From a virus (Duplodnaviria; Caudoviricetes): a DNA stretch of 64,000 nt. Shown piece by piece: positions 50,271-60,922 of this stretch. The DNA is taken from IMG/VR virus record IMGVR_UViG_2706796489_000001, positions 1 to 64,000 of that record; one strand, given 5' to 3'. A program made the translations under genes and the position numbers. Under the pieces are notes generated by a model that ran no database searches, was not told the origin of the DNA, and saw nothing but the letters and a program-made list of their open reading frames with translations. Positions within the stretch are counted from its first letter, which is position 1, and every line of letters starts with the position of its first letter.

Positions 50271-50494
50271 TCCAGTATGTCCTCGATAACGGCGATCTGG
50301 TCGGAGTCCAGCTCGTCGCGGTTGTTTTCCAGGTACTCCGCGACCCATCCCCGATACGGGATGGACAGCCGGAGCGCTTTGCAGATTCGGGCATGAAGGA
50401 AGCTGCGGTCATCCCACGGTTTGTCCGTGATGTGTGCCAGAGCTTCCTTCAACATCTTGCCCTCATCCGAGTTCTTTCGGATGTGCGGAATCAT
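50267..50494 (-). CDS. hypothetical protein
   Basis: Coupled between the polymerase and the next gene. Confidence 0.6.
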   Translation of the reverse strand: MIPHIRKNSDEGKMLKEALAHITDKPWDDRSFLHARICKALRLSIPYRGWVAEYLENNRDELDSDQIAVIEDILE

Positions 50495-53223
50495 GCTGCC
50501 TTCTTCTCCTTCTTGGGACCATCAAGGATGTAGTCCACGATGGCCTGGCGCTCTTCGTCGTTCGCCGCCTTGCCCCAGCGGTCGGCCGATACAGCCGGCA
50601 CACCATCCTGGATTTCCATGAGTTCGATCTGCCCGTTCGGAGCTTTGTCCAGGCTCCACGGTTGCAGCGTCTTGCCCACGGCGAGCGAAGAGTCCAGCTT
50701 CAGGTTGTTGATGAGACCAGCGGGTTCGATCATGACCTCGTAGAGATCCTTCATGAACGCCACGGCTTGAGAACGCGGCACCGAGTAGACCAGCTCGTCG
50801 TGGATCAACAGGAAGAAGCGGGCGCGGTAGCCCTTCTCCTTGATGACATCCTTCATGCGGCGGATCTTGCGCTTGGCCAACGCCGCGCACAAGCCCTGCA
50901 CCATGGAGTTGACGGCCTGGTTGCCCGCGCGGCGGTTGATCTTCTTGATGACGACTTCACCGAAGTTGGCGATGGCCGGCACGCCATACTGCTGGAACTT
51001 CTGCCGCATGGCGTTCATCCACTCAATCGTGGATTCGAAGCGGTCACGGCGGTGATGATCCGGCAGCTCGACATAGCCCTGATCACGCGAGGCTTCGATG
51101 ACGCCCAGGCGCCAGGCTTCGCCCTGCGGGAAGGTGTTGCGGTACTTGTCGGACTGTTCCCACATCTCGTCCGAAGTCCATCCCATTTCCTTGGCCGTGG
51201 TCCCCAGCGCGCCGGAGTACCAGTAGCCGAAGTTGGAGACCTTGCCGATCTTGGTCCGCATCTTCTTCTTGTCGGGATGAACGTCGTACTCGTCCGGCGA
51301 CATGCCTGTGATACCGAGCACCGCCAGGCGGTGCAGATCTCGGTGAGGCCGCTGGCCATATGCTTCGAAGAAGCCCGCATCACCCGAGTATTCCCCGATG
51401 ATGACCAGCTCCACCGCCGACCAGTCGGCCGACACCAGGATGTGCTCTTCCCCCTCGGCGTCATCATCGTCCGCTTCGAAGAAGCCCCGCACATACTGGG
51501 ACTCCCCGAACTTGGCCAACTGCTGGCCGTTGGGGGTTGCGCACGCGGAGCGCCGGCTGGCCAGCAAGCTGGACAAGACCGGATAAACGCGGTTGGTCTC
51601 GGGGTCAATGAGGTTCAGGTACGGCGTGATGTACAGCTTCACGCGCTGGGCGATACCCGCCATGGCGCCGTAGGTCTGGAACACCCCCAGGCCGGCCCGG
51701 AATCGGTCGTAGGCGGGCCGCAGCTCGTCGGGTAATACCCAGGTAGCCATGTCCTCCACGGCCTCGCCCTGGGCGTCGATTTCGCGCCCATTGCTGTCTT
51801 CGATGAAACCCTTCAGCTCGCCCTCGGCGTACTTCTTGATCCAGCGGCGGCGCAGCTCGGCGCGGCAATCACCATCGGATTGGGTCTTGCCGTTGACCAG
51901 CATGAAGCTGCCGCGCATCAGGTCGTAGAGCACCACGCGCATCGGCATGTAGTGAACCAGGTTCAACCCCTTCGATTCGGGCTTGCCCTTCTCCAGCGCC
52001 CATGCTGCCGACACCGGGGAGCGAACCTGCATCACCTGAGCGAAGTCATCCTCGCTGTCCGGGCTGTTGGCCCAGTCGATGATCTGCTTGCGGTACTTGG
52101 CCGCGTTGCCGGTCCCCTTGTTCTCATCGAAGTACCACTTGTCGTACTTGGCCAGCTTCTCGTGGATGTCGTCCGGGAACGGCAGCAAGCCCCGGATGGC
52201 CTTCTTCATGTCGCGCAGCGCCTGCGCTTCCATGGAGCGCTCGACAGTGCGGCGGTCGTAGACGGCCTGAGTGTTCATCTTGATGCCGTGTTGCCAGACC
52301 TGGGAGGCCTCGCGCACGAACGGCATCTCTTGATCCAGGTAGGTCTGGAACACGGGCGGGTTGGTCTGCATGATGTAGGCCAGCACGCGATGGAACAGCT
52401 TCACGCACCAGTAGGCGTCATCAACGCCGTAGCTGGCCACTTCCTCGCCGGTCAACTGGCCCATGTGGACCTTGCCGTCCAGCGTCTGCTGGAACGTGGC
52501 CATGTCGTAGTCGAACCACGACTTCACAGCACGCTTGAGGTCGTAGCCGATGCGGATGGCGTTGACGAAGCCGTTGTACGAGTGCTCGGCGTCCGACTCC
52601 TTGGCGATGACCTTGTACAAGATCTCTTCTTGCTCGTTGGTCATCTCCTGGCCTGGCTCGAAGCCGGCGAACACGCGCTGCACGATGGGCAGGATCTTCT
52701 CGATCCCACCCAGGCCTGGCCCATAGAAGTTCTCGCGGAAGTAGGTGTCGGGCGAGTAGGCCGACACGCACAACTGCATCGAGCACAGCACGCGCTCGCC
52801 CAGGTCGTGACCCAGGGACTTCATCATCATCGTCCACTCGTAGTTCGCGTTGTGGATGATCCAGTAGGCATCGGGATTCTTCTTCTCGATGATCTGGCGA
52901 GCCTTCTCCCACGGCACGCGGTTCTCCACGTCAGCGTGAGCGAGGTTGATGTAGTAGGCCTGATCCTTCTTGTTCTCATCAGCGTAGATCGAGAAGCCCG
53001 TCACGGTCGTGCGGTTCACGTCGAACACCAGCTTCGTGTTCGACGCCTTCTGACCTTCCTCGTTGGTCTTCATGAAGCGGTTCAGACCATCGTGGCGGTC
53101 GGCGTCGTGGGTTTCGATATCGAAGCCCACGAACTTCGCCTCGCTGACTTGCGCGATCAAGTCGGGCAGCAGCTGGTCGATGTTGCGAGCATCGACCAGG
53201 ATCTTGTTCTCCGGCAACAGCAT
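50491..53223 (-). CDS. polA: family A DNA polymerase with 3'-5' exonuclease
   Basis: Exo I FDIET; motif A SADWSAVEL; motif B R...GKVSNFG..Y (Phe at the PolI-762 equivalent); motif C IHDEL. Confidence 0.93.
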   Translation of the reverse strand: MLLPENKILVDARNIDQLLPDLIAQVSEAKFVGFDIETHDADRHDGLNRFMKTNEEGQKASNTKLVFDVNRTTVTGFSIYADENKKDQAYYINLAHADVENRVPWEKARQIIEKKNPDAYWIIHNANYEWTMMMKSLGHDLGERVLCSMQLCVSAYSPDTYFRENFYGPGLGGIEKILPIVQRVFAGFEPGQEMTNEQEEILYKVIAKESDAEHSYNGFVNAIRIGYDLKRAVKSWFDYDMATFQQTLDGKVHMGQLTGEEVASYGVDDAYWCVKLFHRVLAYIMQTNPPVFQTYLDQEMPFVREASQVWQHGIKMNTQAVYDRRTVERSMEAQALRDMKKAIRGLLPFPDDIHEKLAKYDKWYFDENKGTGNAAKYRKQIIDWANSPDSEDDFAQVMQVRSPVSAAWALEKGKPESKGLNLVHYMPMRVVLYDLMRGSFMLVNGKTQSDGDCRAELRRRWIKKYAEGELKGFIEDSNGREIDAQGEAVEDMATWVLPDELRPAYDRFRAGLGVFQTYGAMAGIAQRVKLYITPYLNLIDPETNRVYPVLSSLLASRRSACATPNGQQLAKFGESQYVRGFFEADDDDAEGEEHILVSADWSAVELVIIGEYSGDAGFFEAYGQRPHRDLHRLAVLGITGMSPDEYDVHPDKKKMRTKIGKVSNFGYWYSGALGTTAKEMGWTSDEMWEQSDKYRNTFPQGEAWRLGVIEASRDQGYVELPDHHRRDRFESTIEWMNAMRQKFQQYGVPAIANFGEVVIKKINRRAGNQAVNSMVQGLCAALAKRKIRRMKDVIKEKGYRARFFLLIHDELVYSVPRSQAVAFMKDLYEVMIEPAGLINNLKLDSSLAVGKTLQPWSLDKAPNGQIELMEIQDGVPAVSADRWGKAANDEERQAIVDYILDGPKKEKKAA

Positions 53224-53238: not shown

Positions 53239-53679
53239 TCAGGCGCGGCGGGGACGAATGTCCAGGACCATCTCGTAGCGGCCCATGGCCAGCGGCACGG
53301 TCGGCCGGTTCTCGATGGTCACGACCACGCCCAGCTCGTTGGCGGTCTTGACCAGCAGTTCGGCCTGGGCGCGCACGCGGTTCTCGGCGTCCTTGAGCGT
53401 CAGCGCCGGCCCGGTCTGGCGGGCCAGGAAGTCGTTGATCTCGGTGCGGGTCACGACGACCGGGATCACCGGGCCGTCGAGCTTCCAGCCCTTCTTGCCC
53501 TTGGTGGCCACGCGGTACTTGCCCTTGCACAGGATGGCGTCGGTGCCGATGCGTTCGAACTCGTAGAACGAGAACTCGTTGCTCGTGACCAGCGTGTCGC
53601 GGTTCAGCTTTTCCCAGGCCGCGAGCATGTAGGGTTCGGGTTCGGGGTAGCTGGGGCAGTGGTAGGGGAGCATGTCCAT
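53239..53679 (-). CDS. hypothetical protein
   Basis: 146-aa ORF with biased codons. Confidence 0.7.
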   Translation of the reverse strand: MDMLPYHCPSYPEPEPYMLAAWEKLNRDTLVTSNEFSFYEFERIGTDAILCKGKYRVATKGKKGWKLDGPVIPVVVTRTEINDFLARQTGPALTLKDAENRVRAQAELLVKTANELGVVVTIENRPTVPLAMGRYEMVLDIRPRRA

Positions 53680-53682
53680 GAC

Positions 53683-53898
53683 TTAGATTCCTTCTTCGAG
53701 AACGGCCACTTGAGTGGCCAGGGTGCAGATGGCCAGGGCCACGAGGCCATGGGGGTTGTTCGCCTTCACAGTGGCCATGAGCTGGGTGATGATCTCTTGG
53801 CATTTCTGCTGGTCTTCAGCAGGCATCGCGCGCAGTTCGTCTTGAGCTTCCATGAGGTCAAGTCGCGCCTTACGCAACTCGTCTTGCTTCGTGGTCAT
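53683..53898 (-). CDS. hypothetical protein
   Basis: ATG 53898 overlaps the exonuclease stop. Confidence 0.6.
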   Translation of the reverse strand: MTTKQDELRKARLDLMEAQDELRAMPAEDQQKCQEIITQLMATVKANNPHGLVALAICTLATQVAVLEEGI

Positions 53899-54677
53899 AG
53901 GAGAAATCCTTTCAGGATGGATTCGATTTGCGACGGGTTGGGTTTCCCGAAGGTCATGCGCTTGATCAGGTCGTCGTTGGGTACGTCGCGGAACCCGGCA
54001 ACGGTCCACATGGCCTTCAGGGTGGCTTCGTTTTCCTTGACCCACGTCAAAGACGCCGGCCGCAATGCCAAAGCGTCGGCAAACATCTCCCAGTCGAGCT
54101 TCCGGGAATTTTCGAAGTAGTCGAGCCATAGTGCTTTGTCCGTTTTTTCCCAGGCCACGTCCCCGAAGAGATGTATGCCTTTGATGGTGTCAGATTTATC
54201 GCCCACGAGGGTCTTGTACAACCGAACTTCAGTCCAGTCGGTGTTCTCGTAGGTCGTGTTGTCTCGACCATGGATGGTCACGTTCACGCCGTCACACAGC
54301 GCGAGGAAGTCGCCGTCGTTGGAGTAGATCTTGATGCGTTGACCCGTCCCGATGCGCGGTCGAACCAGCGCGCTGATCACGTCGTCGCCCTCGTAGTGGG
54401 GGACTTCGACCTGGATCACACGAGTATGCAGCAGCACTTGCTTGAACAAGTCCTGGATCTTGTAGAACTCGTCACTCGCTCTTATCCGTTTGCTCTTGTA
54501 CAGCGGGTAGATATCCTGGCGGTACTTCTTGGAATGGTAGCCATCCCAGACGTAGATGACAGGATCTCCAACGGGATACGTCAGCTCGATGTCGGCCAAC
54601 ACGCCGCGAATCAAGCCGGTGGCTTCGAACATGCGGCGGAAGGTGTTGTTTCCGTCAACGATGTGAACTGTGGTCAC
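53895..54677 (-). CDS. 5'-3' exonuclease/flap endonuclease (RNase H-like)
   Basis: IVDGNN, VWDG, YRQDIYPLYKSKR, YEGDDVI, SNDGDF, LVGDKSDTIKG; start at GTG 54677. Confidence 0.92.
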   Translation of the reverse strand: MTTVHIVDGNNTFRRMFEATGLIRGVLADIELTYPVGDPVIYVWDGYHSKKYRQDIYPLYKSKRIRASDEFYKIQDLFKQVLLHTRVIQVEVPHYEGDDVISALVRPRIGTGQRIKIYSNDGDFLALCDGVNVTIHGRDNTTYENTDWTEVRLYKTLVGDKSDTIKGIHLFGDVAWEKTDKALWLDYFENSRKLDWEMFADALALRPASLTWVKENEATLKAMWTVAGFRDVPNDDLIKRMTFGKPNPSQIESILKGFLL

Positions 54678-54681
54678 GGTG

Positions 54682-54882
54682 TCATACCTGCTTGAAAATG
54701 TGGAACTGCTCGACATCCGCGTGCCATGCTTTGGCACACTTGGCGACGACCCGATTGCACTCACGCTTAGTCTTAAACTGCGTGGCTTCGGTAGGCTTGA
54801 AGGTGCCACCGAAGTCTCCGGTTCCATCAGGGTCGAGAAGCCAATAGCCGGGGTGTGTACGACTTGAGAAATAGATAATCAT
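54682..54882 (-). CDS. small hypothetical protein
   Basis: ATG 54882 with an AAGGA RBS. Confidence 0.55.
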   Translation of the reverse strand: MIIYFSSRTHPGYWLLDPDGTGDFGGTFKPTEATQFKTKRECNRVVAKCAKAWHADVEQFHIFKQV

Positions 54883-54895
54883 GTCGGTCCTTGAG

Positions 54896-54930
54896 AAAAG
54901 AAAAGGGCGGAAGGTTTTATCCTTCCACCC
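54896..54930 (-). terminator. rho-independent terminator
   Basis: Minus strand reads GGGTGGAAGG-ATAAAA-CCTTCCGCCC-TTTTCTTTT. Confidence 0.75.
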
Positions 54931-55112
54931 TTTGATGGCTCCAGTCGCTGTTCGGCGTTGCTGGAGGGTCTTTAGCGAAAGCACGCATAGCGGACCCTGG
55001 GGCGTTGCCGAACTGAAGGTGCCGAGGTTTCCCGCCTACATCGTGATGGTTGCTTCCCCATCACAAGCTCCCCTCGGGTCCGTCCACCTTCACAACTGGA
55101 GCCATCAAAGGG
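54928..55112. ncRNA. candidate structured non-coding RNA (unclassified)
   Basis: 18-bp perfect terminal inverted repeat enclosing two multi-helix arms; no credible ORF. Confidence 0.55.
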
Positions 55113-55142
55113 CCGCGCCCTTGTGAAGCGCGGCCCCTTGCC

Positions 55143-55850
55143 TTACTCGTCGCCGCCTTCGTCCTGAGTCATCTCGCCCACCAACTCCCAGGTCATGATG
55201 CCCCAGGTGTTGTTGTTCTTGTTGCTCTTGGCTTCGAAGGAAACGACCACTTCAACGCACTTGCCCAGCAGGCCGGCGTTCTGCACCGCCTTGTAGAAGC
55301 TTTCCCACGCCGACCAGTTCGTGGTCGAGGTGGAATAGCCAGCGCGCTGACCGGCCTTGGCCAGCTCGACGCCCTTGGGCGACTTGATGTCTTCCAGCAG
55401 CACCATCGGCACATCGACCGAACGGTACGGACGGGCCTTCGGGTCCAGCGCCACGGCCTTCTGGATGGCCTCGTTCCACGGCACGCCCTTGTCGGACATG
55501 GCGCCGTCGTAGGTGGACCAGTATTGCGCGGGGTTGCCGGCCTTGATGGATTGCTTGCACGAGAAGCCCACGCCGTCGGTCATGTCGATGTAGGCCTTGA
55601 AGCTGGAAACCAGCTCTTGGGTCTGACCGACCAGCAGGCCGAACTCCTTGCACTTGACCCAGACATCGACGGTCATGCCGCCAGCCATCAGGGTTTCCAT
55701 CGACATCTTCTGGCCAGTGGTGGCCACCGCGCCGCCCGAGGGTTGGGTCGTGGCTACCGCCGTGTTGGCCGGCGCTTGCTGGGCGACTTGTGCGGCTGCA
55801 CCAGCGGCGTTCTGCGCGGCTTGAATGGCGGCTTGGATAGGATCACTCAT
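55143..55850 (-). CDS. probable single-stranded DNA-binding protein
   Basis: In the replication cluster, strongly biased codons, beta-rich core, acidic tail (TQDEGGDE), hairpin downstream. Confidence 0.6.
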   Translation of the reverse strand: MSDPIQAAIQAAQNAAGAAAQVAQQAPANTAVATTQPSGGAVATTGQKMSMETLMAGGMTVDVWVKCKEFGLLVGQTQELVSSFKAYIDMTDGVGFSCKQSIKAGNPAQYWSTYDGAMSDKGVPWNEAIQKAVALDPKARPYRSVDVPMVLLEDIKSPKGVELAKAGQRAGYSTSTTNWSAWESFYKAVQNAGLLGKCVEVVVSFEAKSNKNNNTWGIMTWELVGEMTQDEGGDE

Positions 55851-55949
55851 TTTAATGCTCCAGGGTATGTTTCAGTTTCGATATGTCTCACCAACTTGGT
55901 GAGATGGCAAGATCATACCATGGTTGTTAAAGGATGGAAGATCCATTTA

Positions 55950-56348
55950 TCAGATAAATGTGAAGTTCTCGTCCTCCGGTTTGTGTGCTGCATTAGTCGA
56001 GTCAACCAGTTTGTTGAACTGGTCAACAGGTATGTCCCAGTGCTGGTGAGCATCAACATCCACCATCACGTCATGCTCGGTGCCGCACGGCGTGTCGTAG
56101 GTGATGAACACGAGATGCCCCATGATCATGATGGCCTGGGGACCAACAGGTTGGGTGTCCAGTTCCACGATGTCACGAGCGGCTTCGAATACCGGGAAGT
56201 GCTTGCCCAACAGATCGTTGATGGCCTCGTGGTTGTCGCAGACCACCTCTTCCAAGATGATCTCCAGCTCAACCTTCTTGGCCTTCGGGTCGTCCTTCCA
56301 GGTGTGTAGCTTGACCAGGTAGGCGAAGGGAACTTTTCCTGTGACCAT
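55950..56348 (-). CDS. hypothetical protein
   Basis: GGAGG RBS; 132 aa. Confidence 0.7.
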   Translation of the reverse strand: MVTGKVPFAYLVKLHTWKDDPKAKKVELEIILEEVVCDNHEAINDLLGKHFPVFEAARDIVELDTQPVGPQAIMIMGHLVFITYDTPCGTEHDVMVDVDAHQHWDIPVDQFNKLVDSTNAAHKPEDENFTFI

Positions 56349-56357
56349 GATGGCCTC

Positions 56358-57494
56358 CTATTGCATGCGCTTCTGGATGTCGCCCAGGGACCACTTGTCC
56401 GGGAAGTTCTTGGTCATGTAGACCGAGATCTCGCAAGCCGCGTTGTAGACCCAGCGAGGCACCTGAACGGGAGAGCCGAGGATCGCAAGATCCACCATGT
56501 CGGTGTTCAACTGGAAGGCATTGGCCCAGGCCACGATCTGTTTGGCGTGAGCGAGCTTGCCTTCGATGCCGCCGTAAGAGGTGTGGTAGTCGTCGCCCAA
56601 GACCTCTTGGCCATACGCCATGTCGGGCTTGGCCGGCGCTTCAACGAAGCAGTCGATCAACTCGCCACTGGGGCTGCGGCGTTCACGCACGCGCCACCCG
56701 AGGTTCGCACCGACCACCGAGGGTGGCGTGGCGTAGTGCGGGATGCTTTCCCACTTTTCGCGGTTGAACGGCATGTCTTCCAGGTCTTCCATCGCCAGAT
56801 GAACCTTCCCGGATTCTCGGTGCGTGTGCTTCCAGATGACGGACGACAAGGGGGAGGGTTCAGGCGTCTGGTCCGCCTTGTTCCGCAGCCAGTAGATGGC
56901 ATTGTCCAGGCTCATCGTGTCAAAGCCCGGGATGTTGCAGAAGCTGATAGCACGTCGGGCTTTCTCCAGATCGTGCTTGTAGCCGATGTTCACCCAGCCT
57001 TGCCGTTCCATCTCATCCTGGTCGGCGTCGGCGCTGGCCAGCGGGGTGGTGTAGAGCGTGCGCACCTCTTTTCCGTTCTCGTCGCAGTTGGCGAGCGCCT
57101 GAGCGTCGATGTCTTCCCAGGTGCCGTTGGAATGGAACACCTGATGCACCGGAGTTGCCATGGGGATACGTTGGTTGGCAAGCCACTGGGCTGCAACCTT
57201 CTCCGCTTCCTCTTTGCTGGCCAGCCCTCTCGCAATCTGAAAGACACGCCGGCCTTTGCACCCCCAACGGTTCACGTCCTCGAAAACATCGGTGCCATCA
57301 ATCCGCACGCACCAGCCGCTGCCGATGGTGTCGCAGACATACACCCCCTCAACCCAATCCAGGTCGGGGCGCACGCCATCATGGCGCTTGACGGCCTTCG
57401 TGGTGGCGCGCGCCGCTTTCCAGGCAGCGAAGGGAGTGACCACGCTCGCGGTCTTCTCCCAGGCTTGGAACTCTTCCAGTTCTTTGTCGATCAT
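56358..57494 (-). CDS. hypothetical mosaic protein
   Basis: 378 aa of short phage-type modules (..RTLYTTP; ..PHYATPP). Confidence 0.7.
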   Translation of the reverse strand: MIDKELEEFQAWEKTASVVTPFAAWKAARATTKAVKRHDGVRPDLDWVEGVYVCDTIGSGWCVRIDGTDVFEDVNRWGCKGRRVFQIARGLASKEEAEKVAAQWLANQRIPMATPVHQVFHSNGTWEDIDAQALANCDENGKEVRTLYTTPLASADADQDEMERQGWVNIGYKHDLEKARRAISFCNIPGFDTMSLDNAIYWLRNKADQTPEPSPLSSVIWKHTHRESGKVHLAMEDLEDMPFNREKWESIPHYATPPSVVGANLGWRVRERRSPSGELIDCFVEAPAKPDMAYGQEVLGDDYHTSYGGIEGKLAHAKQIVAWANAFQLNTDMVDLAILGSPVQVPRWVYNAACEISVYMTKNFPDKWSLGDIQKRMQ

Positions 57495-58942
57495 GATGCC
57501 TCCATAAACACCGCCATGCTGGCCTTGCGGTCAGCGATCTTGTTCACGTCGTAGATGCCGCCTTCAATGGCCTCTTCGTCCAGGTTCTGCTGCGACAGCT
57601 TGTAGATCTCCTTCGTAGGATCAACCAGGTGGGATTCACGAGACTTCATCTCGATGATCTTCATGATGCGCTGGTCAATCGAGTCGCGGTATTCCAGCAC
57701 GTAGATCAGCAGCGGCGTCTCGCGCTTGCCGCGAATGCCCCGGCGATACGCCTGCATGAAGGAGTCGTCTTGGTAATCTAGCGAAGCGAACACCATAACC
57801 CTCAGATGGTTCCAGTTGAACCCGATGCCGGCCGTGGCGGGCGAGGCCACCACGCAGTCGAGCAAGCCGGCCTGGAACTGTGCGTCGATCTCGGCGCGGC
57901 GCGCGGCCGACACCGTACCGTTGATCAGACCCGTGCGCAGGCCAAGCGACTTGGCCAGCTCCACGATGCGCAGTTGCTCGGGGATGAGTGAGGCGAAGAC
58001 CGCAATGGGTTCGCCCGACTGCACGGCGTTGCCCAGGTGGATCTTCAGGCGCTCATCCTTGCCCGTCGTGCCGACCTTCAGGCCGAACGTCTCGGGATGA
58101 GCCATGAGCTGGCGGCAACGAATCGCCGACGTGCCGGGAGATCCAGCCGACAAGAACGAATCTTCCAGCTCGACCAGTGCGTCGGCTTCCATCGAGTCGT
58201 AGACCTTGCGCTGCGCGGGACTCATGTCGCACAGCTCGGGGATGATGACTTTCGACTCCGGCCCGTGGACCTCTTCGAAGGTGTGGCGCACGGCCACGTT
58301 CATGAAGATCTGGCGCAGCTTCTCGTGGTTGCGCCACCCAGTGATCTTGCCACCATCGTCGCGCACGGCGTGGTAGCCCAGGAACGCGCCGTAGGTGCCG
58401 TAGAAGCGCGGCTCGATGATGTTCAAGGCCGGGTAGGCCGAGGTCAGCCGGCCCTTGATGATGGTGCCAGTCATGCCGAGGAAGGTGTCAACTTCCTTCA
58501 TCGAGTCATAGAGCGCCTGGGTGCGGCCGGAGTCATGACCCGCGTAGCCCAGGTGCATCTCGTCCACCGTCAAGTGGCCGATCTGCGGGTGATGGTGAAG
58601 GATGTTCTCCCAGTCCGAGGACCAGCGGTCAAAGCCCATCAGCAAGACCTTCGGCTCGCGGCGCAGCAGCATCTGTTCACGTTGTGCCGGCGTGCCGTCG
58701 AGGATCAAGACCTCTTCGTCGCGGAAGTGGCTGAATTCCAGCAAGTCAACCTTGTTCTTGCGCAGGAGCGACTTGGGCATGGCCCACACCGACTTGGTGT
58801 TCTTCTCGCTGGCCAGATACCACGAGTACATCGCGGCGCTGCCGGTCTTCTGCGCGCCAGGGTCCGACAGGTTCAGGCAGCGGCGCGTCTGAATATAGAA
58901 GGCCAGGTCAACGATCTGGTGCGGGCGGGGAGTCTTCTTCAT
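57491..58942 (-). CDS. superfamily 2 (SNF2-like) helicase
   Basis: DPGAQKT (motif I), VDEMH (II), MTGT (III), AGIGFN, QAYRR (VI). Confidence 0.9.
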   Translation of the reverse strand: MKKTPRPHQIVDLAFYIQTRRCLNLSDPGAQKTGSAAMYSWYLASEKNTKSVWAMPKSLLRKNKVDLLEFSHFRDEEVLILDGTPAQREQMLLRREPKVLLMGFDRWSSDWENILHHHPQIGHLTVDEMHLGYAGHDSGRTQALYDSMKEVDTFLGMTGTIIKGRLTSAYPALNIIEPRFYGTYGAFLGYHAVRDDGGKITGWRNHEKLRQIFMNVAVRHTFEEVHGPESKVIIPELCDMSPAQRKVYDSMEADALVELEDSFLSAGSPGTSAIRCRQLMAHPETFGLKVGTTGKDERLKIHLGNAVQSGEPIAVFASLIPEQLRIVELAKSLGLRTGLINGTVSAARRAEIDAQFQAGLLDCVVASPATAGIGFNWNHLRVMVFASLDYQDDSFMQAYRRGIRGKRETPLLIYVLEYRDSIDQRIMKIIEMKSRESHLVDPTKEIYKLSQQNLDEEAIEGGIYDVNKIADRKASMAVFMEAS

Positions 58943-60834: not shown

Positions 60835-60922
60835 TGGTACAGGTGGCGGGTATCGAACCTAAACACTCGTCAGTGCGCGCCTTCCGGTTAAGAACCGGGT
60901 GCTCTCCTTGAGCTACACCTGT
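60835..60922 (-). tRNA. tRNA-Lys(CUU), atypical (88 nt, encoded CCA)
   Basis: Acceptor ACAGGTG/CACCTGT-A-CCA; D arm GCTC/GAGC; anticodon loop TT-CTT-AA; TTCGATA T loop; 16-nt insertion in the T stem. Confidence 0.82.

Follow-up and report, generated by a model that had tools for sequence, protein, structure and literature searches.

The window analysed here is a 64,000-nt stretch of DNA from the start of a phage record of 81,541 bp that has direct terminal repeats. Among named records, Achromobacter phage 2-1 (OQ974181) is the closest, and the phage belongs to the Achromobacter phage group. Around the locus under study all genes share the minus strand and make up a replication module: a helicase gene (57491-58942), an SSB-like gene (55143-55850), a 66-aa open reading frame (ORF; 54682-54882), a gene for an RNase H-type 5'-3' exonuclease or FEN (53895-54677; Pfam PF02739, phrog_107) and a family A DNA polymerase gene (50491-53223). 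Just downstream of the SSB-like gene, a 258-nt spacer (54885-55142) houses a non-coding element of ~175-185 nt that is predicted to form a three-armed RNA fold.

The SSB-like gene, the upstream neighbour of the element, encodes a 235-aa protein with an acidic C-terminus and ends in a TAA stop codon (55143-55145). Pfam and PHROG searches with this protein gave no match, and a protein search returned 55 homologues. Its AlphaFold model (pLDDT 78.7) most resembled the gp3 chain in the structure of the PhiC31 integrase-RDF fusion (9teh_I; 150 residues aligned, Z 9.6), followed by the OB folds of gp32, RPA and bacterial SSB (Z 4-5). Residues 16-57 of the protein are predicted to be disordered. Judged from the structural model, the SSB-like label is reasonable but not proven.

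Translation of the 66-aa ORF would begin at ATG 54882, preceded by the SD sequence AAGGA (54888-54892). The ORF had no Pfam or PHROG match; its one homologue (P0057, 82% identity) was found in Logan/ENA contigs, and it is missing from phage 2-1 and from the related locus L003 described below. At its longest, the FEN ORF (53895-54827, minus strand; 310 aa, start ATG 54827) shares sequence with the 66-aa ORF, which is read in a different frame. The N-termini of the homologues in L003 and phage 2-1 (MTTIHLIDGNN) indicate that the real FEN start is likely GTG 54677 (260 aa), with the stop codon of the 66-aa ORF (54682-54684) 4 nt upstream of it. ARAGORN identified no tRNA or tmRNA at the element. 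The sole tRNA in the window was an unusually long tRNA-Lys(CUU) of 88 nt (60835-60922, minus strand).

The element is bounded by an 18-nt inverted repeat, CCCTTTGATGGCTCCAGT (54928-54945), which is 100% complementary to its partner at 55095-55112, 149 nt away. This repeat closes a three-way junction flanked by two hairpins (54902-54933 and 55107-55139), each of which has the outer 6 nt of the repeat (AAAGGG/CCCTTT) in common with it. An earlier, sequence-only reading of the locus had described the perfect repeat, the two arms inside it and the shared flanking hairpins, and all three were recovered here. Read 5' to 3' on the minus strand, which is the sense strand of the genes, the order is the SSB-like stop codon, 3 nt, hairpin T1, UUU, helix P1, arms P2 and P3, the return strand of P1, hairpin T2, a U-tract, SD AAGGA and ATG 54882.

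T1 (55107-55139) is a 14-bp G+C-rich hairpin that starts 3 nt past the stop codon and is followed only by UUUGAUGG. Its tail amounts to UUU, without a U-tract, and the terminator scan did not call it. T1 abuts P1 without a spacer, and its 3' base, CCCUUU, doubles as the outer end of P1. P1 pairs a 5' strand at 55093-55112 with a 3' strand at 54928-54947, each taking in one repeat arm. It has 14 bp, extendable to 18-20 bp, with 20 standard pairs in both phages that carry the element, and in the minus-strand fold it runs on into 7-8 bp of P2. The last 6 nt of its 3' strand (AAAGGG) are also the 5' base of T2. T2 (54892-54933) was called by the terminator scan as a 13-bp hairpin (54902-54933) with the U-tract UCUUUUCUC (54892-54901). 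This G+C-rich hairpin, directly followed by the tail TCTTTTCTCA, has the make-up of an intrinsic terminator, and T2 is the sole canonical intrinsic terminator on the minus strand within 53500-58000. It contains one U-G pair that is valid on the sense strand only and is C-A on the other strand. The SD of the 66-aa ORF lies directly after T2.

The arms P2 and P3 are similar in length. In P2 (55015-55091), a stem of 7-8 bp is followed by a 7-nt bulge, then by stems of 6 and 4 bp, and lastly by a 7-bp hairpin whose 8-nt tip loop is L2 (GGAAGCAA, 55050-55057). P3 (54950-55013) has stems of 7, 2 and 6 bp below a 3-bp hairpin whose 6-nt tip loop is L3 (UGCUUU, 54978-54983), and alignments showed a 30-nt stretch at its tip (54967-54996) to be identical in both phages. 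The MFE folds of both strands contained arm 1 as GTTCGGC/GCCGAAC and GGGTC/GACCC, and arm 2 as TGAAGGTG/CACCTTCA, CCGAGG/CCTCGG and GTGATGG/CCATCAC. The sequence-only reading had capped arm 1 with a GC-GAAA-GC tetraloop; this holds for the plus strand, and on the sense strand the tip is a 3-bp stem with the 6-nt loop UGCUUU.

The two tip loops are complementary over 6 nt (GAAGCA in L2, UGCUUU in L3), and the one change in L003 converts a G-U to an A-U pair. By our own estimate, a 6-nt loop would be fully complementary to an 8-nt loop by chance with a frequency of 0.001-0.01. In the modelled fold, L2 and L3 can pair, mostly through invariant sequence and backed by a single one-sided change. Another tertiary pairing, between CGGAC in the P2 bulge and GUCCG, was rejected, because it is disrupted by an A-to-U substitution in L003.

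A search with the SSB-like protein identified the second carrier, an 80.4-kb IMG/VR contig (UViG_3300017560_000009) on which the loci L003, L006, L009 and L012 all lie. In L003 the element occupies the same place, directly after the homologous SSB-like gene, and the FEN gene comes next, without a 66-aa ORF. Covariation, which the sequence-only reading had put forward as a check, was assessed on these two carriers. RNAalifold applied to the two sense strands gave 83 pairs, with 6 double changes that still pair, 7 one-sided changes that still pair and 0 broken pairs. Within a 188-column core, 68/68 pairs were standard in both sequences, the proposed loop-loop helix included. The compensatory pairs were spread across four helices (two in P1, three in P2, one in P3), and P3 carried two sense-only G-U changes in addition. 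Sliding the pair partners by 1-3 columns on the core left zero compensatory pairs.

To avoid circularity, we also threaded L003 onto a fold predicted from the window only. We observed that 83/91 pairs were kept, with 5 double and 7 one-sided changes, and that the 8 losses were peripheral. When the 29 substitutions were placed at random 200,000 times, a mean of 11.5 pairs were broken; none of the 200,000 placements had zero broken pairs, and none reached at least 6 compensatory pairs. Because the carriers of the element number two, this covariation amounts to one pairwise comparison. The pattern of substitutions shows that the predicted fold is selected and strand-specific. Since a related phage keeps the fold by matched base changes, we regard the element as a real new phage RNA candidate.

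The predicted fold was strong on either strand and strongest on the sense strand. The minus strand reached -137 kcal/mol, compared to -95.6 +/- 5.6 kcal/mol in 200 dinucleotide shuffles (z = -7.4), and the plus strand reached -125.6 kcal/mol (z = -6.1). The L003 element on its own gave z = -6.8 on its sense strand, and in both phages the sense-strand fold had an advantage of about 11 kcal/mol over the antisense one. The sequence-only reading had stated that G-U pairs do not settle the strand, which was mistaken: 83/83 consensus pairs were standard on the minus strand in both phages, whereas on the plus strand 6 (window) and 9 (L003) pairs became A-C mismatches, so that 77 and 74 were kept. Every one of the 7 one-sided changes was a transition, leaving G-U on the sense strand but A-C on its complement, an outcome with a chance of about (1/2)^7 = 0.008 if there were no strand preference (our own calculation). 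Because G-U pairs and free energies both favour the sense strand, we conclude from these folds that the element probably works best as a minus-strand, gene-sense RNA. The strand bias is not strict proof of RNA, since G-T pairs also form in single-stranded DNA.

The core of the element was better conserved than both neighbouring genes. Between the window and L003 it was 85% identical, and T2 with its tail 95%, compared to 82% (SSB-like) and 73% (FEN) nucleotide identity in the flanking genes; at third positions of identical codons these genes were 77% and 61% identical, respectively. The two elements differ by three separate 1-nt indels, and thus no reading frame is conserved in them. An 81-aa ORF on the plus strand (54881-55126) was rejected, having no Pfam match and three 1-nt indels relative to L003. 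A hammerhead-like CUGAUGA noticed by eye in L003 was likewise set aside, as it is not kept in the window and the Rfam ribozyme models were silent.

None of the 4227 models of Rfam 15 matched the element at its gathering threshold. The best score inside it was 18.6 bits for BjrC68 (threshold 39), which fell on the T2 hairpin alone, and the remaining scores were <23 bits with E of 0.05 or more (search at E up to 10). The sequence-only reading had recognised no riboswitch or ribozyme consensus here. Its suggestion of an undescribed phage ncRNA gained support from the lack of an Rfam match, the strong fold, the compensatory changes in L003 and the conservation above that of the neighbouring genes.

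The element is single-copy in its own phage genome, and a blastn search against phages and plasmids gave no match. An IMG/VR scan with three exact conserved blocks plus the 18-mer found it on the L003 contig alone; L004 and L005 were rejected as single-arm chance matches. The repeat-pair pattern had 0 matches in 185,579 species genomes. blastn against 401 Burkholderiales genomes, which are a sample and not all Achromobacter, returned short matches of 18-45 nt only; one recurrent short match was treated as chance, being GC-rich with no likeness beyond the match itself. With the covariance model R1, the phage's own copy was the single match; 20 related loci and 151 Burkholderiales genomes gave no match.

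In 15 other related loci the element was absent and a single hairpin followed the SSB-like gene. The U-tract, SD and FEN gene came directly after this hairpin in 10/15 of them (nine IMG/VR contigs of about 80 kb and the shorter L020, mostly from Burkholderia-type isolates). A Burkholderia paludis locus, L026, was left out of the spacer comparison. Phage 2-1 lacks the element, and T1 there has a full U-tract. Over the aligned part, identity to the SSB-like protein of the window was 89-91% for phage 2-1 and 87-88% for L003; closer relatives are known from the proteins P0003, P0004, P0006 and P0057. Because phage 2-1, the closest named relative, goes without it, the element is dispensable. It is an accessory and not a core part of this phage group.

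Comparison of the spacers suggests how the element arose. The relatives read stem-TTTTT-SD-ATG, and the carriers read T1 stem-TTT-P1-P2-P3-P1'-T2 stem-TTTTCTTTTC-SD-ATG. T1 is homologous to the single terminator found in all relatives, and the 7-mer GCCCTTT ends both the T1 and T2 hairpins. The simplest reading of this arrangement is a ~205-bp insertion between the ancestral terminator stem and its U-tract. T1 would have kept its stem and been disarmed, and T2, brought by the insertion, would now sit on the old U-tract. The cross-pairing of CCCUUU with AAAGGG would then need no regulatory logic, because the insertion would have duplicated the terminator base. The site appears to be a hot spot for insertion: phage 2-1 has an HNH gene there, the window has the 66-aa ORF, and distant relatives have other inserts.

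The HNH gene of phage 2-1 is an unannotated 153-aa ORF (L001:2469-2930, minus strand; about 57393-57854) with the motif EVDHVVP...HVPWNLE...NRSKHN. It fills a 515-bp gap between the RNaseH and SSB-like genes, the exact site of the element in the window. It is probably a free-standing homing endonuclease that was missed in annotation.

We next considered what the element may do. A scan found no promoter-like site for it on the minus strand. Given this, and its position right against T1, the RNA of the element would have to come from transcription that runs on from the SSB-like gene. Our best reading, to which we assign a probability of about 0.55, is that the element is a functional gene-sense junction RNA made as a 3' extension of the SSB-like mRNA, with P1 as its processing stalk. 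Polymerases running through T1 would yield this extension, and the transcript would stop at T2 or carry on into the two genes that follow, the 66-aa ORF and FEN. With its long perfect P1 duplex stacked on P2, this RNA would present a processing stalk for a double-strand-specific nuclease of the RNase III type. Cutting there would separate the SSB-like mRNA, its end capped by T1, from a compact junction RNA of about 150-170 nt.

P1 offers about two turns of near-perfect double-stranded RNA, as expected of an RNase III stalk, in its 20 pairs. It has been kept perfect by two double substitutions, though 5-8 bp would close a junction. From these features of the predicted helix, P1 probably serves as a processing stalk, and the RNase III-processed RNA put forward in the sequence-only reading is plausible. 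The loop complementarity and the invariant P3 tip argue for a defined three-dimensional shape that a partner recognises, and the freed RNA may use the 30-nt tip and the loop-loop contact to bind such a partner, a protein or a nucleic acid. A search of the whole phage genome for an antisense target gave a longest match of 13 nt, compared to 11-17 nt for shuffled sequences, and hence nothing beyond chance.

A cis-acting attenuator is the alternative that fares best, and we consider it unlikely. It would comprise four segments, AAGGGG (a, T1 5' base), CCCUUU (a'), AAAGGG (a) and CCCUUU (a', T2 3' base), and would couple the downstream replication genes to translation of the SSB-like gene. With segments 1:2 and 3:4 paired, T1 and T2 would be whole and transcription would terminate at T2. 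With 2:3 paired, the full P1 would form, the T2 base would be sequestered and transcription would read through into the 66-aa ORF, FEN and polymerase genes. The choice between the two states would fall to a ribosome ending translation at the stop codon of the SSB-like gene, or to a ligand or factor that the junction binds. The shared 6-nt segments are identical in both phages, and forcing the full P1 costs only 4-7 kcal/mol. T1 lies 3 nt past the stop codon in the two carriers only, compared to about 14-20 nt in the element-free relatives, and in both phages the SD of the next gene directly follows T2. Masking the first 15-18 nt from the stop codon flipped the MFE fold to the full P1 and cut T2 to a 6-bp hairpin off the U-tract; however, masking 12 nt, which is nearer to the real footprint of a terminating ribosome, left the fold unflipped.

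The T1 plus T2 state was always favoured while T1 was free, and the inner 14 bp of P1 appear too stable for ligand dependence. Moreover, a simple attenuator needs no conserved 150-nt junction with an invariant tip, and in the relatives the same downstream genes are expressed behind a plain terminator. The four-segment symmetry is automatic if the insertion duplicated the terminator base, as the GCCCTTT at the end of both hairpins suggests. The competition between folds described in the sequence-only reading is real and amounts in silico to a coherent four-segment switch, which can also be explained as a by-product of the insertion. Its proposal of an SSB-sensing attenuator found no support: nothing ties the element to SSB binding, and the element lies downstream of the SSB-like gene.

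More speculative still, and rather doubtful in our view, is that the junction is a sensor of a small molecule or of a phage or host protein for a two-terminator ON-switch, or that the excised RNA is a trans-acting decoy. In the sensor version, the state of the junction would decide whether P1 zips to its full length, and a fully zipped P1 would release the bases of the two flanking terminator hairpins together, perhaps in step with ribosomes that terminate 3 nt ahead of T1. If true, such an ON-switch would determine how much SSB-like protein is made during replication relative to FEN and polymerase; a decoy would be aimed at a host defence or RNA-binding protein.

Two explanations that dispense with an RNA fit the data worse. 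In the first, which we judge improbable, the element is a single-stranded-DNA signal on the same strand, for example a priming site or replication start exposed while the module is replicated. Its position inside the replication module would suit this, compensatory changes keep DNA hairpins as well as RNA hairpins, and the strand bias is compatible with it, given that DNA tolerates G-T pairs. However, two RNA-level signals in the same orientation frame the element, a terminator hairpin and a canonical terminator with a U-tract, and it is neither A+T-rich nor endowed with iterons. Most relatives that have the same replication genes lack it, so it cannot be their origin; phages with a T7-type replisome (polymerase, helicase, SSB, FEN) are not known to need structured priming signals.

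The second, a selfish MITE-like insertion or mobile-element remnant with no RNA function, would account for a segment of about 185 bp whose ends form an 18-bp perfect inverted repeat, and which is patchily present among close relatives, has the homing-endonuclease ORF in its place in phage 2-1 and seems to be inserted into a terminator. This explanation is improbable all the same, as the segment is single-copy with no counterpart in the species genomes, plasmids, phages or Burkholderiales genomes searched by repeat pair, blastn (401) or covariance model (151), lacks a target-site duplication (the repeat flanks are GCGCGG and TGGAAGG, and the 7-nt direct repeat GCCCTTT marks the T1 and T2 ends and not the repeat boundaries), is conserved beyond its neighbouring genes, and keeps every one of its 83 pairs through all changes, those of the internal hairpins included, where an immobile neutral remnant would gather mismatches.

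We compared the element, on the preferred reading as a processed junction RNA, with known systems. Judged by analogy, the nearest documented kind appears to be the processed 3'UTR-derived ncRNAs of Pseudomonas phage PAK_P3, ncRNA1 of about 210 nt and ncRNA2 of about 120 nt, which lack a start site of their own (PMC10914365). The element is similar to these in size, is likewise sense-oriented right behind a phage gene with no separate promoter, and is conserved, as they are, among close relatives only. It differs in having no sequence or Rfam relation to them, and the PAK_P3 ncRNAs come from transcript data whereas the element comes from structure and covariation alone.

With RNase III stalks the element shares a long near-perfect intergenic duplex (20 pairs plus 7-8 stacked) in a phage operon. 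The RNase III sites of T7 early mRNA and lambda sib are single irregular hairpins, and in sib retroregulation a terminator hairpin is lengthened into an RNase III site once transcription reads through it. The duplex of the element similarly overlaps a terminator-type hairpin, such that read-through alters the fold; in contrast to T7 and sib, it closes a conserved three-way junction with an invariant tip. In this it resembles rRNA and tRNA-type stalks, where the duplex encloses a functional RNA.

Purine ON-switches are three-way-junction aptamers with kissing loops and a terminator that overlaps P1. The element resembles this type in its P1-P2-P3 junction, its complementary terminal loops and the overlap of the P1 3' strand with the terminator 5' strand (AAAGGG) just upstream of an SD and start codon. 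However, its arms are three times longer, its P1, whose inner 14 bp are predicted to be stable without a ligand, appears far too stable for ligand dependence, the overlap covers only the outer 6 bp and needs T1 to be opened, Rfam gave no match, and the downstream gene differs between the two carriers.

Few structured ncRNAs of virulent phages are known, and most of these only as bands or read pile-ups. The element adds a compact ncRNA candidate with an unusually clean structural signal, in that all 83 pairs are compatible, the strand is resolved and the tip is invariant, and its evolutionary origin is readable as an insertion splitting a terminator. The modelled folds support it, at the level of structure and strand, as a new family-level structured ncRNA candidate. 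With two carriers, this is a well-founded lead and not the discovery of a mechanism, and its practical value is modest. Achromobacter phages are under development for cystic fibrosis therapy (PMC10457797), and an accessory RNA in the replication module of this phage group may be worth knowing.

Several relatives show further features at the same place. Past the terminator U-tract of phage 2-1 (L001:2946-2990, plus strand), the sequence CACTGGAGTTACCATG resembles the P1 3' strand GACTGGAGCCATCA (window 54934-54947), with a 7-mer and CCAT in common. It could be a remnant of the element or a chance match, chance being estimated at about 0.2. A distant relative (IMGVR_UViG_3300048858_000027; L025:3122-3350, plus strand) has an unrelated spacer of ~220 nt in this position, with a hairpin without a U-tract first and a canonical terminator last (z -4.1; no closing helix predicted), possibly a structured insert that arrived independently at this hot spot. 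In the more distant loci L008, L011 and L024, we noticed by eye a sigma-70-like promoter after the SSB-like gene (TTGACA-N17-TATACT in L011). An ORF of about 80-100 aa follows in L007, L008, L010, L011 and L024, beginning MLLKVTVNGQ... in L007 and L024. These promoter-like sequences and small ORFs suggest that the spacer is a regulatory junction across the phage group.
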